Of a stretch of DNA of 64,000 nucleotides, positions 8,346 through 61,853 are shown piece by piece (the stretch's first letter is position 1; the number at the start of each line of letters is the position of its first letter). This DNA comes from Octopus sinensis (taxonomy: Eukaryota): NCBI RefSeq assembly GCF_006345805.1, contig NC_043009.1, positions 38,750,001 through 38,814,000 on the forward strand. Reading direction: 5' to 3'. The notes under the pieces were generated by a model. That model had not been told where the DNA came from and did no database searches. It saw nothing but the letters and a program-made list of their open reading frames with translations. The position numbers and the translations under genes were made by a program.

Positions 8346-8378
8346 TTAACGTTTCGAACATTAGTCATTCATCAGAAG
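8346..8378 (-). ncRNA. Degenerate minimal hammerhead motif in a Penelope-like terminal fragment
   Basis: Minus strand: tt CTGATGA atgac taat gttc GAAAC GTT aa; same layout as the 39509 copy. Confidence 0.5.
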
Positions 8379-8814
8379 AAATATAAGAGAATCATAGAGG
8401 AAGTTAGAAAGATATCTCGAAACAAAGAAATTAAGCGGATATCTAGAAACCAGATGAAAATGATATTCTATGAGATGAGTGGAAGAAGCATGTATAACAG
8501 TGTATCGGTGTCTGAAAGGAGACATGGTGCGGGGAGGGATGTCGTGTTAGGCGTGTATACGTATGTGCATACATTTGTGGAAAGGTGGAATGTGTAGTGG
8601 ATGTATGGAAGTTGGTATATTTGTGTAATCGTTCGTGCTGTGAGAACTTGTACTTAAGGAAGTAAAAGCGGGTAGCGGGTGAGGGTGTTAAGTAAATAAA
8701 GATATTGGTGAAGCAAATGGAATGACATGAGAAATGCAGAAATTGTTGCTGGTGAATGTGTAAACGCCAGGAGTAACTAGGTATGTGAAATATGTATCTG
8801 TATATAAATTTCTC

Positions 8815-8980
8815 TATGTATGTATGTATGTATGTATGTATGTATGTATGTATGTATGTATGTATGTATGTATGTACGTATGTATGTATGTATGTATGTA
8901 TGTATGTATGTACGTATGTATGTATGCATGTACGTATGTATGTATATATGTATGTATGTATGTATGTGTGTATGTATGTT
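8815..8980. repeat. (TATG)n microsatellite
   Basis: Direct inspection. Confidence 0.95.
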
Positions 8981-10276
8981 TGTAAGCATCGATCGATCTA
9001 TCTATCTTTCCCTCTTTCTCTCTTTTGCTTTATACATATATGTATGTATATGTGTGTGTGTGTGTGTGAGAGAGAGAGAGAGAGAGGGAGGGAGGGAGGG
9101 AGAGAGAAACCATCTTCTTTCTCCTGTTGGCTTCCGAATGTTTGAGGAGTATGTCATGTTCTTTCCTTGTCAACAAAACTTTAAGGCGAGGAGCTAAGTC
9201 GACCTTATAAGTCAATAAATACTACTCAAATTATATGTATTTGAACACCCACTCGTATACGCACACAAAAACACACATGCATACTCACAAACACACATGC
9301 ACACTCACATAAATATACAATCATATATGAAATCGCATTTGTTCAAATATTTCTCATTTCCAATATCCTAATATTCATGTACATTGATCTTTCCTTTACA
9401 GAAATTTAACCAAGATACTCTACGCATCACATATATTTGCCAGAAATATTTATATACATATATTTTCATACTTGTCCTTGTTAATAAGCGTAACCAGATT
9501 GTATGCATTTCTAAAGGACTATCGCTAAGACCATTAACGTAATAAGGAAAGAATCCAAAATTTGTTACAGTTTATAGAATTCTGAGCTGTATTATGGATA
9601 AAAGCATTAGTTCATGGAAATATTAGCAATTCATTTGTAATTATCTGTAATTACTTGAACTTTTTCATCAAGAAAATGCATTTTAATGGACTGTTTTCAG
9701 GCCCTACCAATTAGAAGAATGGAATACCAAGCGTCTTATTAATTTTAGAATTGACTGAAGAGATTGGAAACAGTAAGTCTTCAGGCAAAACTAGTTTCTG
9801 TGTAATAGTAGTATGGTCCTATCTTGGCGGGTGTTGTATTAAAGAATCATGTAAATGAATAGGAAAGATGGACATTTTGTGTCATATAGGTGTAATTAAA
9901 GCAATGTCGATATACATACGCACACAGACGCACATACACACAAACACACATACACAGACAGACAGGTACACACGCACACACACACATACATACACACACA
10001 AACCTATGCATATATATGTATATGCGAGCAAAACGCCCCCCGTCCAATCGACAGTGCTGAGTTGTCAAACATTTAAACCAAATTTTCTGAAAACAACTTG
10101 TCCGTCCGTCCCTGTGAGAAACACTGATTGAACCTAAATTCGAGACACCAGCAAAAGAAGAAATAAAGATAGACTTTTTTCTATTCCAAAGAAAAACGAT
10201 TTCCCACGGTTTTATCGATCGAGATCCTAGACGCCACACACACACACAGAACGGATTTTATATTAGAGAATATATA

Positions 10277-11164
10277 CAGGGTGTTCCAAAAGTCACTGAG
10301 GGGTTTCTAATTTTAGTATCTTCCCTAAGTTTAGAAATAAATGCAGGACATTTTGATACAATATAAAGAACATAATGGAAATTAATATGCACAAGTCAAA
10401 TTTTGCAACACAACTACATCACATATGAAAAATAACAAGGCTTAAATGGCAGCTATTCTCGGCTTCGCACGCCTGTGCTCTTTCCAAAACTTGCACCATA
10501 ACATCCTCAAGAGTTTCAGACCACACTTCTCTAATTTATCTATTGGTGTTCTCCTTCAGTTGCACCAGGGTCTCCGGTTTGTTGACGTAAACCTTCTCTT
10601 TCAGATATCCCCACAAGAAAAAAATCCAGGCTAGTCAAGCCTGGGGAACGTGAAGGCCATTCAAAGAAGACCTCACACATGGTTCCAGCAAGATGGGACA
10701 ACTGATTATACGGCAAGAGAAGCAATGCAGTTACTACGGAGGTACTTTGGTGAGAGAGTAAAATCCCGCTACGGCAATGTCAACTGGCCTTAACGTTCCC
10801 CAAACTTGACTAGCACGGATTTTTCTTGTGGAGATACTTGAAAGAGAGGGTTTACGTCAACAAACCGGGGACCCTGGTGCAACTGAAGGAGAACATCAAT
10901 AGAAAAATTAGAGAAGTGGGATCTTAAAATCTTGAGGGTGTTGTGGTGCAAGTTTTGGAAAGAGCACGGGCGTGCGAAGCCGAAAATGGCTGCCATTTAA
11001 GCGATGTTATTTTTCGTTTGTAATGTAGTGGTCTTGCAAAATTAGACTTACGTATATTAATTTCCATATGTCCTTTATATTGTATTAAAATATCATGTAT
11101 TTATTTGTAAACTTAAGGAAGTTATTAAAAATTAAAATCCATCAGTGACTTTTGGGACACCTTA
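10277..11164 (+). mobile_element. Non-autonomous fold-back Tc1/mariner-superfamily element, DD41D (rosa-type), with ~380-bp inverted arms
   Basis: TA-flanked ends CAGGGTGTTCCAAAAGTCACTGA / TCAGTGACTTTTGGGACACCTTA; arms 10277-10659 and 10785-11164; + strand reads MWFQQDG...WP*RSPNLTSTDF..YLKERVYVNKP..GCHLSDVIF with 41 residues between the last two catalytic Asp. Confidence 0.9.
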
Positions 11165-58988: not shown

Positions 58989-59158
58989 ATTGATCTGTGT
59001 GTACGTCAACTTCTCCTCTGGACAAACGCTTGCCCGACATTGCTAGCAATATCCTTTATTTTGCCTTCCATTTTGAACTAAGGCAATTAATCACATCAAT
59101 TTTCGTTTTCCATCTTTAATTTGACTGCCTAAAATTAATAAAAAATATACAATATCAT

Positions 59159-59572
59159 AGGCGCAGGAGTGGCTGTGTGGTAAGTAGCTTGTTTACCAAC
59201 CACATGGTTCCGGGTTCAGTCCCACTGCGTGGCACCTTGGGCAAGTGTCTTCTACTATAGCCTCGGGCCGACCAAAGCCTTGTGAGTGGATTTGGTAGAC
59301 GGAAACTGAAAGAAGCCCGTCGTATATATGTATATATATATGCGTCTGTGTGTTTGTGTGTCTGTGTTTGTCCCCCTAGCATTGCTTGATAACCGATGCT
59401 GGTGTGTTTATGTCCCCGTAACTTAGCGGTTCGGCAAAAGAGACCGATAGAATAAGTACTGGACTTACAAAAGAATAAGTCGCGGTGTCGAGTTGCTCGA
59501 TTAAAGGTGGTGCTCCAGCATGGCCGCAGTCAAATGACTGAAACAAGTAAAAGAGTAAAAGAGTAAAAAGAG
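59159..59572 (+). mobile_element. Group B SINE, full length
   Basis: tRNA-like head, CORE-like accttgggcaagtgtctt, internal (TA/TG)n, (gtaaaaga)n tail. Confidence 0.93.
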
Positions 59573-61630
59573 TGAAAAACCTCAGCGTAGATCTACAGAA
59601 TGTAGCATATCGTTTTGAAATGGTGCATTACGTGTACACAATTAAATAAAAATTTATTCTCAAATAAGAATCGAAGTTTCAAAATAACGAAATCATCCAC
59701 GATTTTTGCACCATCATAGTGTATTTGACAGCATCTATTCAACTAGTAACTATAAAGCTTAGAATCTATCTATATTTACAGTAAACCATCACCATAAATA
59801 TAGATATCATCAACACAGACGGCATTATCATATACATCATCATCATCATCGTCATGGTTATTATCATCACCGTCATCAGGATCAGCGTCGTCGTCATCAT
59901 CACCATCACCAACAGCAGTATCATTATCATCGTAATTATTGATATGACCACAGTGAAACTAAAAATTTATTAATGTAAACTACGTACTGCAAATCATCGC
60001 CCACATACACAATCACACATACACTGAAACATATCTTAGGTTCACACATACACACATACACGCATACGCTCATATGCCGATATCTTATTCATTCGAATAA
60101 ACCACTCGTTTGCATATACACGCTATGTTCTCCTATACATACATGGATACACACAAACATACATACGTGCGTACGTACATACATACATACATACATGCAT
60201 ACATATATACATACGTACATACACACACACACATATATATATACATAAATGAACTATCTATCTATCTATCTATCGATCTAGCTATCTATCGATATGTTTG
60301 TCTTTGTATCTATGCAGATATGCTGGTACACCCACACACCCACATATATGTATATGTGTATATATGTGTGTGTGTGTGTGTGTATGTATATGTATGTATA
60401 TATATTTATATATACGAATATATATGTTTGTATATATATATATGTATATGTATATATATATATATATATATGTATTGATAAATAGATAGATAGATAGATA
60501 GATAGATAGATAGATAGATAGATAGATAGATAGATAGATAGATAGATAGATAGATAGATATGTATAGCGACATGAAACGACTGTTAAGTAGTATACGGTA
60601 ACAGTGTATTCTTTAAGTATAAGGCAGACAGACATATTGATAGATAGATATATAGATAGATACGTTTGTACATTCATACCTACATACATAGATAATTAGA
60701 TAGATAGAGAGAATGAACAGCAGATATAAAGATGCTAGCGCCATAGAGCAAAGCAATATGATATAGGAATTATGTTGCTGAAAAGTTCAAAGCTACATCG
60801 CTCTGTAATTTCAAAGCACTTCAACAACCAGTGCGGCCAGCAGTGTGAGGCGGCATGAAATATCATTGCCAATGATATTTGAGATGCTCAAAGTGTTGAC
60901 GAAAGGAATGATAATGACCGAAATGTTTGCGTTGCATGTGTTCGGTAATGGTTGGGAGTCGGATGTTGAATATCATGGCACGATGCAGCAAAGGCTCTGT
61001 CAAGATCATTATCTCTGAATGGCAAGTTTGTAGAAAGATAAACTAACAAAACTAAACAACATATGTCTTTCCGACGGCATCGTTTCATTATTTATGCCAA
61101 TGTAATGTTTGCTTTTTTTAAAAGTCCGTATCCCTGAAAAATCACATCTTGCAAACACTGCATACATTCCCATCAGCATTACTATTGACATACAGACAGA
61201 CAGATAGATAAATATACAAACAACGTAACACACGCGCAATTAGGTACAGGCACCTCACTAATGCATTTATACATACATACATACATACATACATACATAC
61301 ATACATACTTACATGCATACATACATACATACATACATACATACATACATACATGCATAAATACATATATACATACTTACATTCATACATACATACATAC
61401 GTATGTATGTATATAAGTATGTGTGTATATATATATATATATATGTGTGTGTGTCGAAATGATTATGCATGATTATATATATATACTCATACAAATACAT
61501 AAGTACATATTTATGTTTATACAGATGTATACAGACAGATACGTGTATATATATATATATATATATATATATATATATATATAATATATATATATATATG
61601 TATATATATATGTATGTATATATGTATATA

Positions 61631-61853
61631 TATACTTAATTTAAAAGCAGCAGAAATATAACAAAAGCTGTTACTCAAAGATCACGTTCCCGTTCGTCGA
61701 ACAGTTTTGTTAAAATATTTTAACGGGGACGTGAAACTCTGAGTAACAGCTTTTGTTATATTTCTGCTGCTTTTAAATAAAGTATATTACTCTACCTCTG
61801 GTATATGAGTACTCTTTTTCCCACCTTGTTTCACATTTATGTGCTTACTCCAG
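61631..61853. mobile_element. (TA)n-embedded fold-back Penelope-like fragment with a split HHR
   Basis: 61631-61694 is the reverse complement of 61722-61786; the arms together give ctgt TCGACGA acg ggaa cgt GAAA ctc t gag TA acag. Confidence 0.7.

Follow-up and report, generated by a model that had tools for sequence, protein, structure and literature searches.

Hammerhead-shaped motifs and controls

The 64,000-nt stretch of Octopus sinensis DNA analysed here (the window) was initially annotated as carrying 15 hammerhead-shaped motifs of at least six unrelated families tied to (TA)n, which raises the question of what these motifs are and how they came to be copied. We consider it very probable that they are hammerhead-shaped ends of Penelope-like elements (PLEs) and of two short tandem units with no ORF, which likely entered (TA)n or AT-rich DNA as copies of RNAs that had probably not been cut.

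All 15 motifs are present at the coordinates of the initial annotation, and each site belongs to a dispersed repeat family with type I hammerhead architecture (Table 1); a fully canonical motif is kept in only 3 of the 15 copies, the other 12 being decayed or variant. A structural descriptor of the minimal hammerhead found three exact-core matches (18677+, 18286- and 39539-) where 40 block dinucleotide shuffles gave 0.025 per window; with one core mismatch allowed, there were seven versus 0.58. A relaxed, family-independent descriptor also placed the window above its controls (7 matches versus 0.77 in 30 dinucleotide shuffles); five of these seven are annotated sites, while those at 8749 and 37752 look like chance, and the latter was dropped as the junction of a SINE 5' end. 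With a descriptor lacking the extra nucleotide, family D was the sole match. Profiles of genomic copies, some of which take in the window's own copy, scored 14 of the 15 sites at 49 bits or more and none in the reversed window; the fifteenth site (31183) has 40 scored relatives with 78-100% identity.

At the Rfam gathering score the window yielded no hammerhead, only a U6 snRNA being matched. In the E-value mode, microsatellite matches to miRNA models dominate the best 150 of 484 rows, and the repeat search of the window was dominated by simple repeats. Single-strand folding favours the hammerhead layout only for family I (z=-2.3), the five other folded motifs having z between -1.2 and +0.2. 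The absence of an Rfam hammerhead and the two relaxed matches of seven that are not family hammerheads would agree with chance matches in AT-rich, repeat-rich DNA; this reading is, however, already refuted by the enrichment over shuffles, the empty reversed controls, the layout kept across 11 families and the position at PLE 3' ends, and we give it practically no credence.

The expectation of at least six families was exceeded, as we distinguish 11 (B, B', B'', C, D, E, F, G, H, I and J), but they are not unrelated: one architecture is common to B, B', B'' and F, Hydra-type architectures are common to D, E, G and J, and the families trace to a few PLE lineages. The window is denser in hammerhead motifs than average, with a descriptor excess of ~6 matches in 64 kb versus ~9 in 400 kb (40 stretches picked across chromosomes); the density in itself is ordinary PLE debris.

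Table 1. Copies of hammerhead-bearing repeat families in the window (positions counted from its first nucleotide)
Feature	Position	Strand	Remarks
Family F, old minimal hammerhead	8308..8412	-	Core canonical; stems I and II partly decayed
Family G, old Hydra-type hammerhead	11374..11453	+	Decayed, then (TA)10; layout as in Hydra rows of File S2 of PMC8557442
Family B copy	15818..15978	-	U6 core; 3' end at (TA)n
Family C, old minimal hammerhead	16594..16922	-	6-bp stem II, extra G; short inverted piece
Family B'' copy, relative of B and B'	16982..17184	+	Decayed; then (TA)n
Family D compound insertion	18098..18979		Between (TA)n runs; inverted arrangement of pieces from a 482-nt non-coding head-to-tail unit
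Family D intact canonical hammerheads (two)	cores 18286, 18677	-, +	Within 18098..18979
Family C copy	27483..27727	-	Stems I and III decayed
Family J	30531..31382	+	Hammerhead with ~45-nt loop II; core 31186, U4C in this copy
Family B' copy	39400..40740	-	Intact canonical minimal hammerhead, core 39539; >1.1 kb CA-rich upstream
Family B relative	47657..47745	+	U6 core; GAAA box lost; then (CA)n(TA)n
Family H copy, decayed	47852..48270	-	~363-nt unit; canonical type I layout, 6-bp stem I, 4-bp stem II
Family B copy	49304..49501	+	U6 core; reaches from about the initiator-like site to (TA)26, where its fixed 3' end lies
Family I copy	50984..51226	-	G3-C8 core with 3-nt duplication; 7-bp stem I, 5-bp stem II, palindromic stem III; an inverted tail piece lies before it
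Family E palindromic insertion	61635..61853		Between (TA)n runs; family core U4C; complete hammerhead in neither arm

Relationship to Penelope-like elements

The suggested link to PLEs was confirmed: the motifs sit at the 3' ends (pseudo-LTRs) of these elements, and genomic loci join family B to an ORF with a GIY-YIG domain, family I to one with reverse transcriptase (RT) and GIY-YIG domains, and a sister family of E to a Hydra-clade ORF.

The end of a GIY-YIG ORF with a CX4CxxC linker lies upstream of family B in 7 of 30 loci; the parent is represented by thumb, linker and GIY-YIG only (atlas score to GIY-YIG clusters: 0.97). Family I is preceded at ~1.9 kb by an ORF with GIY-YIG and RT in three loci (L289, L290 and L291), L291 having both domains. 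Pfam reported the GIY-YIG domain of this parent with E=5e-4, below the curated cut-off, and did not recognise its RT, for which the atlas gave an RVT_1 lead only (11-13% of members). As read from translations, the parents of B and I possess a C-terminal GIY-YIG domain, a CX2-5CxxC linker and a CCHH motif. On the linker and CCHH motifs we tentatively label them as Neptune and Nematis, clades which they resemble in all three characters and from which they differ by their variant hammerhead cores.

The E sister family follows, in the sense orientation and at ~1.1 kb, the end of a Hydra-type ORF in 4 of 20 loci, and the L288 ORF tied to this family has the linker, CxxC and CxH. A 947-aa ORF elsewhere in the genome (L123-L124) exhibits the RWK, DKT, CxCx5C, CxxC and CxH motifs, lacks CCHH, has a (TA)n target, as characteristic of the Hydra clade, and is followed at its end by a hammerhead resembling that of J. 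Two pieces of the Hydra ORF had no Pfam match. The Hydra-clade PLEs described by Craig et al. 2021 (PMC8557442), including Hydra-1_Obim, share these motifs and the (TA)n target, and the Hydra-2_aMil, Hydra-1/2_aJap and Penelope-16_HM rows in File S2 of that work match the layouts of E and G. The octopus elements differ in their greater length (947-aa ORF with N-rich inserts and a 3' region of 1.1-1.4 kb), in the 45-55-nt loop II of J and a relative, and in having many near-identical young copies. The hammerhead layout of J is that of the 947-aa PLE, and an ORF of J itself was not found in 15 loci. The fetched flanks of B', B'', C, F, G and J did not extend into a parent ORF.

The PLE pseudo-LTR hammerheads of Metazoa reported by Cervera and de la Pena 2014 (PMC4209133) have in common with ours the type I layout, the extra nucleotide after A9, the G10.1-C11.1 pair and the palindromic stem III, as well as many families per genome, mostly as single copies with some opposite-strand pairs. 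No cephalopod row was found in the part of its supplement that was searched. The picture of hammerheads, PLEs and (TA)n matches published PLE biology and is mostly known.

Association with (TA)n and 3' ends

The reported tie to (TA)n also stands: of 16 motif positions, 9 are followed by a run of (TA)>=5 within 250 nt, versus 22.7% of random positions (P=0.004). The (TA)n content is 4.5% in the window versus 2.2% in the 40 stretches picked across chromosomes, and families C, F, H and J are not near (TA)n within the window.

The 3' ends of the families are fixed and frequently lie at (TA)n; PLE tails and inversions occur as well. Family B passes straight into TATATA at its 3' end in 23 of 30 loci. 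Two end points are seen in family D (unit position 36-53 in 20 of 30 loci, 162-171 in 10) and in family I (25 of 56 short, 31 with a tail); they correspond to the PLE tail, whose length, ~60 nt in I and ~120 nt in D, exceeds the 30-40 nt in print. The inverted duplications noted earlier were borne out by inverted, 5'-truncated partner pieces in D, E, I and C.

Retrozyme-like units

Family D is a 482-nt head-to-tail unit with no ORF, which maps wholly on the circularly permuted unit; more than one unit length is present in 12 of 30 loci, including a dimer (L034/L035), and eight same-strand pairs 465-482 nt apart occur among 100 listed rows. Family H is a ~363-nt head-to-tail unit, likewise with no ORF; 5 of 15 loci have direct repeats at a spacing of 361-366 nt, and there is a near-dimer (L237) whose second motif is decayed. 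By sequence, both are retrozyme-like: metazoan non-LTR retrozymes (PMC7229834; bioRxiv 10.64898/2026.07.22.740005) are also non-coding head-to-tail units with type I hammerheads, up to dimers, and are derived from PLE pseudo-LTRs (bioRxiv 10.64898/2026.07.22.740005). H falls inside the retrozyme range of 170-400 nt and D above it, although the supplement of PMC4209133 includes a unit of 450 bp; unlike retrozymes in long arrays, copies of D are scattered and show PLE tails, inversions and ends at (TA)n. A helper PLE for D or H was not found, only D-like 3' ends in five other loci, and no RNA set was listed among the carriers of D. The assignment of D to a young Hydra ORF (L056) was rejected, as this ORF runs on the opposite strand and has a hammerhead of its own at its end.

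The initial annotation inferred a population of non-autonomous, ribozyme-bearing retroelements; on the corresponding reading, all families would be non-autonomous retrozymes, cut into monomers, circularised and reverse-transcribed from circular RNA. The permuted unit, multi-unit loci and spaced pairs of D and the direct repeats of H speak for it, whereas PLE ORFs lie upstream of B, I and the E lineage, and the copies of B and of I share a single fixed 5' site without circular permutation, so that for B and I it is already refuted and as a general account we find it improbable. The term non-autonomous suits D and H as non-coding tandem units and fails for B, I and the E lineage, which are short ends of protein-coding PLEs.

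If the window were intronic, sense copies had been supposed to cleave pre-mRNA, and one might regard the copies as host regulators cutting the transcript of a gene spanning the window, given that three of the 15 motifs are intact and that the 5-bp helix III of D might fold as a monomer. However, only those three of the 15 escaped decay or change, the motifs occur on both strands, and cleavage by minimal hammerheads is weak and requires a dimer (PMC4209133). No exon was found, none of the 87 ORFs tested with Pfam among the 229 of the window having a match; contigs of four presumed RNA runs compared with 31550-35393 gave short repeat pieces with no joints and are uninformative on transcription. 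The supposition is therefore unsupported, and we regard such a regulatory role as very improbable.

5' ends of copies and proposed mechanism

In the first 100 copies listed per family (mostly from contigs C1-C3, read by eye), parent sequence is lost at most 10-12 nt from an initiator-like site in 68 of 100 copies of family I and 64 of 100 of family B, versus starts within the 12 nt before the cut site in 2 and 1 of 100, respectively (Fisher P ~1e-24); no listed copy of family D (0/100) starts at the cut site. The initiator-like site precedes the core by 23 nt in I and 68 nt in B. Since copies start there and not at the cut site, the templates of I and B copies were likely uncleaved short transcripts, and the counts provide a genome-scale argument that the copied RNAs are uncut. 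In family I an untemplated G precedes AG in 22 of 33 short AG-ending copies, as cap copying would give. The pile-up site of family I can equally be read as the 3' end of an intron, with a branch-point-like CTAAC, pyrimidines and CAG, which makes splicing an alternative to a start site.

We propose that a promoter inside the pseudo-LTR would produce short transcripts beginning 23 nt (I) or 68 nt (B) upstream of the core, that the PLE protein (RT and GIY-YIG endonuclease) would nick (TA)n, and that reverse transcription would begin internally, at one site or two that lie 3' of the hammerhead, giving either solo pseudo-LTR copies of 150-250 nt or longer, 5'-truncated ones. D and H may use the same PLE proteins in trans. 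The hammerhead itself probably works on tandem precursor RNAs, as a dimer or aided by protein, and not on the RNA that is copied. The function of PLE hammerheads has been called unclear (PMC8557442), and cleavage is dispensable for PLE insertion in vitro (PMC11167929).

Covariation and variant cores

Covariation in the stems, whose absence would have spoken against the initial annotation, was seen: the first pair of stem I is U-A, G-C, C-G or A-U depending on the family, the per-family pair tables show covarying helices I and II together with a palindromic helix III, and one stem I position of family D has a compensatory change (of 27 parsed loci, 9 have A-U and 18 G-C), with the caveat that related copies are not independent events. 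The commonest letters give the CUGANGA box, GAAA box and NUH cut site in B', B'', C, D, F, G, H and J; families B, E and I depart from the canonical core and are regarded as variants.

The variant cores in high-copy families are the new part of our result. Family I has a fixed G3-C8 core, with 5,651 exact matches genome-wide versus 0 in the reversed control; among 100 listed copies, 92 have G3-C8 and none C3-G8. The swap is kept in an older subfamily (9 of 30 loci), ~70% identical, with another N7 and loop II, and the core is altered at no positions other than these two, which pair with each other. The 3-8 pair is kept by this reciprocal swap, and the ribozyme is predicted to be weakly active. 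To our knowledge, the G3-C8 swap is otherwise known only as an engineered rescue mutant. That C3G/G8C double mutant, whose core change is identical and whose cleavage is partly rescued in vitro (PMC11167929, PMC8495972), differs from family I in that the latter is natural and has thousands of genomic copies. Family B has a fixed U6 (15,931 pattern matches genome-wide versus 0 reversed; 98 of 100 listed copies), and its N7 takes all four bases while U6, the stems and GAAA stay; the family has spread despite a ribozyme predicted to be weak or inactive. Family E has C4 in 17 of 19 distinct copies. The alignment in Fig. S3 of PMC4209133 contains only C3-G8 and U3-A8 cores, in contrast to the family-fixed G3-C8 (I), U6 (B) and C4 (E) found here.

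It is nearly an even chance that these variant cores are dead relics fixed in master copies, cleavage being unneeded for retrotransposition; this concerns the variants only and is compatible with our main explanation, as the elements would still be PLE ends. Copies do not start at the cut site, in vitro insertion of an anole PLE is unchanged by catalytic mutants (PMC11167929), A6 changes reduce hammerhead activity (PMC3088659) and U6 has nevertheless spread to at least 15,931 copies. In addition, an open frame of 68 codons runs through the pseudo-LTR of family I, and the core changes could therefore be due to coding. On the other hand, the changes in I are confined to pairing positions and persist in the older ~70% subfamily, and B keeps U6, stems and GAAA while N7 varies. 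We tentatively entertain the view that family I is a natural, selected G3-C8 hammerhead retained by diverged subfamilies within an active PLE lineage and that most I and B copies are self-contained pseudo-LTR units of 150-250 nt, full-length copies of short capped transcripts with the ribozyme uncut, which could be mobile in the manner of SINEs.

The genome offers a natural high-copy series of canonical, compensated (G3-C8) and uncompensated (U6) cores, together with retrozyme-like units with a stable helix III, and comparing cleavage across it would test selection on catalysis versus fold only. Lunse et al. 2017 reportedly collected ~150,000 PLE hammerhead variants, which may already include G3-C8 or U6 cores. 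The canonical minimal pattern has 17,249 matches genome-wide versus 2,209 in the reversed control, and descriptors with a fixed CUGANGA box miss at least 21,000 motifs here, as compared with the ~15,000 excess canonical matches.

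Hammerhead motifs and their repeat families

The window, part of a 2.72-Gb genome, has a GC content of 35%, with short tandem repeats accounting for ~20%, and its SINEs resemble those of octopus. All 15 hammerhead positions listed in the initial annotation were recovered, each as a member of a dispersed repeat family (see the table), and only 3 of the 15 motifs are fully canonical. A descriptor with a palindromic stem III and room for one additional base behind the first box yielded 3 exact-core matches in the window vs 0.025 in block dinucleotide shuffles, and 7 vs 0.58 if one core mismatch was allowed, a frequency above that of the shuffled controls. 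Genome-wide, the canonical minimal pattern occurs 17,249 times (2,209 for the reversed pattern); the window holds 4 such occurrences where 0.41 are expected, and a family-independent descriptor gave a density ~4x that of 40 other 10-kb stretches. Thus, the density is elevated, yet the motifs are the same in kind as elsewhere in the genome. In each family the commonest letters form stems I, II and III around both boxes (8-31 distinct copies per family, unparsed loci excluded), and the same stem positions hold different base pairs in different families.

Hammerhead families and Penelope-like element (PLE) features; positions are those of the window unless a genomic locus is given
Feature	Position
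Family B	15905, 47675, 49373
Family B'	39509
Family B''	17054
Family C	16702, 27644
Family D	18228, 18670
Family E	61668
Family F	8346
Family G	11377
Family H	47971
Family I	51073
Family J	31183
Inverted PLE pieces	16594-16922, 18098-18979, 50984-51226, 61635-61782
Hydra-clade PLE, 947-aa open frame, asparagine-rich inserts	L123-L124, G000:C17:13318497-13321337

Additionally, positions 48918-48989 hold a piece of a family I relative (tail only, no hammerhead), and a 310-nt repeat occurs twice within 43484-44822, both copies with a CTGACGA box and a GAAG box downstream, adjoining (TAA)n runs.

Variant cores

Family I exhibits the core G3-U-G-A-N-C8-A. A pattern that accepts any base at positions 3, 7 and 8 gave 5,651 matches (control: 0); among 100 matches listed, 92 carry G3-C8 and none C3-G8, and with N7=A excluded G3-C8 still occurs in 91 of 100 listed. 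The remainder of the hammerhead is canonical (7-bp stem I, extra G, G10.1-C11.1, GAAA, palindromic stem III, U17). An older subfamily, ~70% identical to family I and with another loop II, accounts for 9 of 30 fetched loci. In the canonical core C3 pairs with G8, and an engineered double swap restores part of the cleavage (PMC11167929, PMC8495972).

The core of family B (15,931 matches) is C-U-G-U6-N-G-A, with U at position 6 in 98 and A in none of 100 matches listed, while all four bases occur at N7. A natural A6C variant cleaves slowly, according to the core-variation section of PMC3088659. Neither core was found in that section, in the portions consulted of the PMC4209133 alignment and of File S2 of PMC8557442, or in the literature searched, Lunse et al. 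2017 being outside its reach; in the main text of PMC13282606 the words hammerhead and ribozyme do not occur.

The finding as initially worded is known in kind, since minimal hammerheads in thousands of PLE pseudo-LTRs (the hammerhead-bearing ends; PMC4209133), (TA)n targeting together with an octopus Hydra element (PMC8557442) and retrozymes derived from PLE pseudo-LTRs (bioRxiv 10.64898/2026.07.22.740005) are already in print. What we could not find in print are G3-C8 and U6 as family-fixed cores and the counts of 5' ends.

Relationship to Penelope-like elements

Upstream extension of the families, suggested as a search for RT and GIY-YIG ORFs, reached ORFs from families B and I and from a sister family of E. 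From family B, a decayed ORF end encoding a CX4CxxC linker and a GIY-YIG/CCHH endonuclease was encountered in 7 of 30 loci; family I is preceded by ~1.9 kb of microsatellite-rich sequence and then by a GIY-YIG domain and RT; a sister family of E with a canonical core has a Hydra-type ORF ~1.1 kb upstream in 4 of 20 loci. No parent ORF was reached upstream of B', B'', C, F, G and J loci. The E and G hammerheads share the layout of published Hydra hammerheads (File S2 of PMC8557442). The genome also harbors a young Hydra-clade element with at least 25 matches 100% identical over 140 aa, open frames as long as 947 aa and a 3' hammerhead with a long loop II, as in family J. This PLE, represented at L123-L124, is very young, many of its copies being 100% identical across the endonuclease, and it is probably active. 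In one family I pseudo-LTR (L261) a frame remains open for 68 codons from one end of the pseudo-LTR to the other, the G3-C8 core included, and may represent the start of the ORF. The 3' region of a family I element (L291:981-1871, L277) carries an inserted frame for a mariner-like transposase.

Families D and H are tandem. All 30 family D loci (some overlapping one another) fit one head-to-tail 482-nt unit without an ORF, 12 of them exceeding one unit length; the family is small, a 23-nt anchor giving 101 exact matches. In 5 of 15 family H loci the repeats are spaced 361-366 nt apart. Relatives of D (L122, L189, L193, L213, L223), often inverted pairs, have only the (TA)-containing junction region in common with it (73-88% identity) and may lead to the helper element of D.

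Insertion anatomy and 5' ends

The 3' ends are fixed, with TATATA directly following family B in 23 of 30 loci. Families D and I have two 3' end points each (120 and 60 nt apart, respectively), which reflect the PLE tail, a feature tied to two internal reverse-transcription starts in PMC11167929. The claimed link to (TA)n holds: of 16 motif positions in the window, 9 have (TA)n no more than 250 nt downstream (P=0.004), with C, F, I and B' as the exceptions there. Inverted arrangements had likewise been noted, and inverted partner pieces are indeed common; if transcribed, the inverted PLE pieces would give long RNA hairpins, possible substrates for A-to-I editing. The palindromic element at 45520-45801, whose 100-nt arms flank a (TA)n core and which itself adjoins (TA)n, may represent a further inversion of the PLE type.

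The 5' ends were tallied by eye from 100 copies listed per family. In family I, the 100 listed all extend to a site 23 nt ahead of the core, and in 68 of them the match to the parent breaks off within a further 10 nt; of the 33 such copies that end in AG, 22 have an untemplated G in front of it. In family B, 64 of 100 listed break off in the same way 68 nt ahead of the core. Only 2 (I) and 1 (B) of 100 listed begin in the last 12 nt ahead of the predicted cut site, and none of 100 listed family D copies starts at the predicted cut site (two inversion junctions lie nearby). The pile-up sites of I and B resemble initiator elements; the sequence at the family I site also fits a splice acceptor and can be read as one. 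Penelope has an internal promoter within its pseudo-LTR (PMC2377424). The simplest reading of these ends is that, for most copies, a short, uncut RNA was reverse-transcribed over its full length. The scarcity of cut-site starts is no proof of ribozyme inactivity, as cut RNAs may just go uncopied.

We propose that transcription starts at the pseudo-LTR promoter or runs through a tandem, that the PLE protein binds the RNA and (TA)n or AT-rich DNA is nicked, and that reverse transcription is primed internally, behind the hammerhead, with inversions often arising at the 5' junction. Families D and H would be mobilised in trans by the same PLE proteins, and hammerhead activity would be confined to tandem precursors. 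The suggestion that sense copies cut host pre-mRNA is unsupported: the copies are mostly decayed, and the 87 of 229 window ORFs tested yielded no exon.

Other elements in the window

At 22678-23148 an almost complete copy of U6 snRNA (103.5 bits in Rfam) is fused directly to a SINE 5' end and looks like a chimeric U6-SINE retrocopy. The 898-nt element at 10272-11169, with ~385-nt terminal inverted repeats and TA at both ends, is presumably a non-autonomous DNA transposon of the Tc1/mariner type. An abundant SINE is present at 56866-57473 as three tandem 183-nt units.
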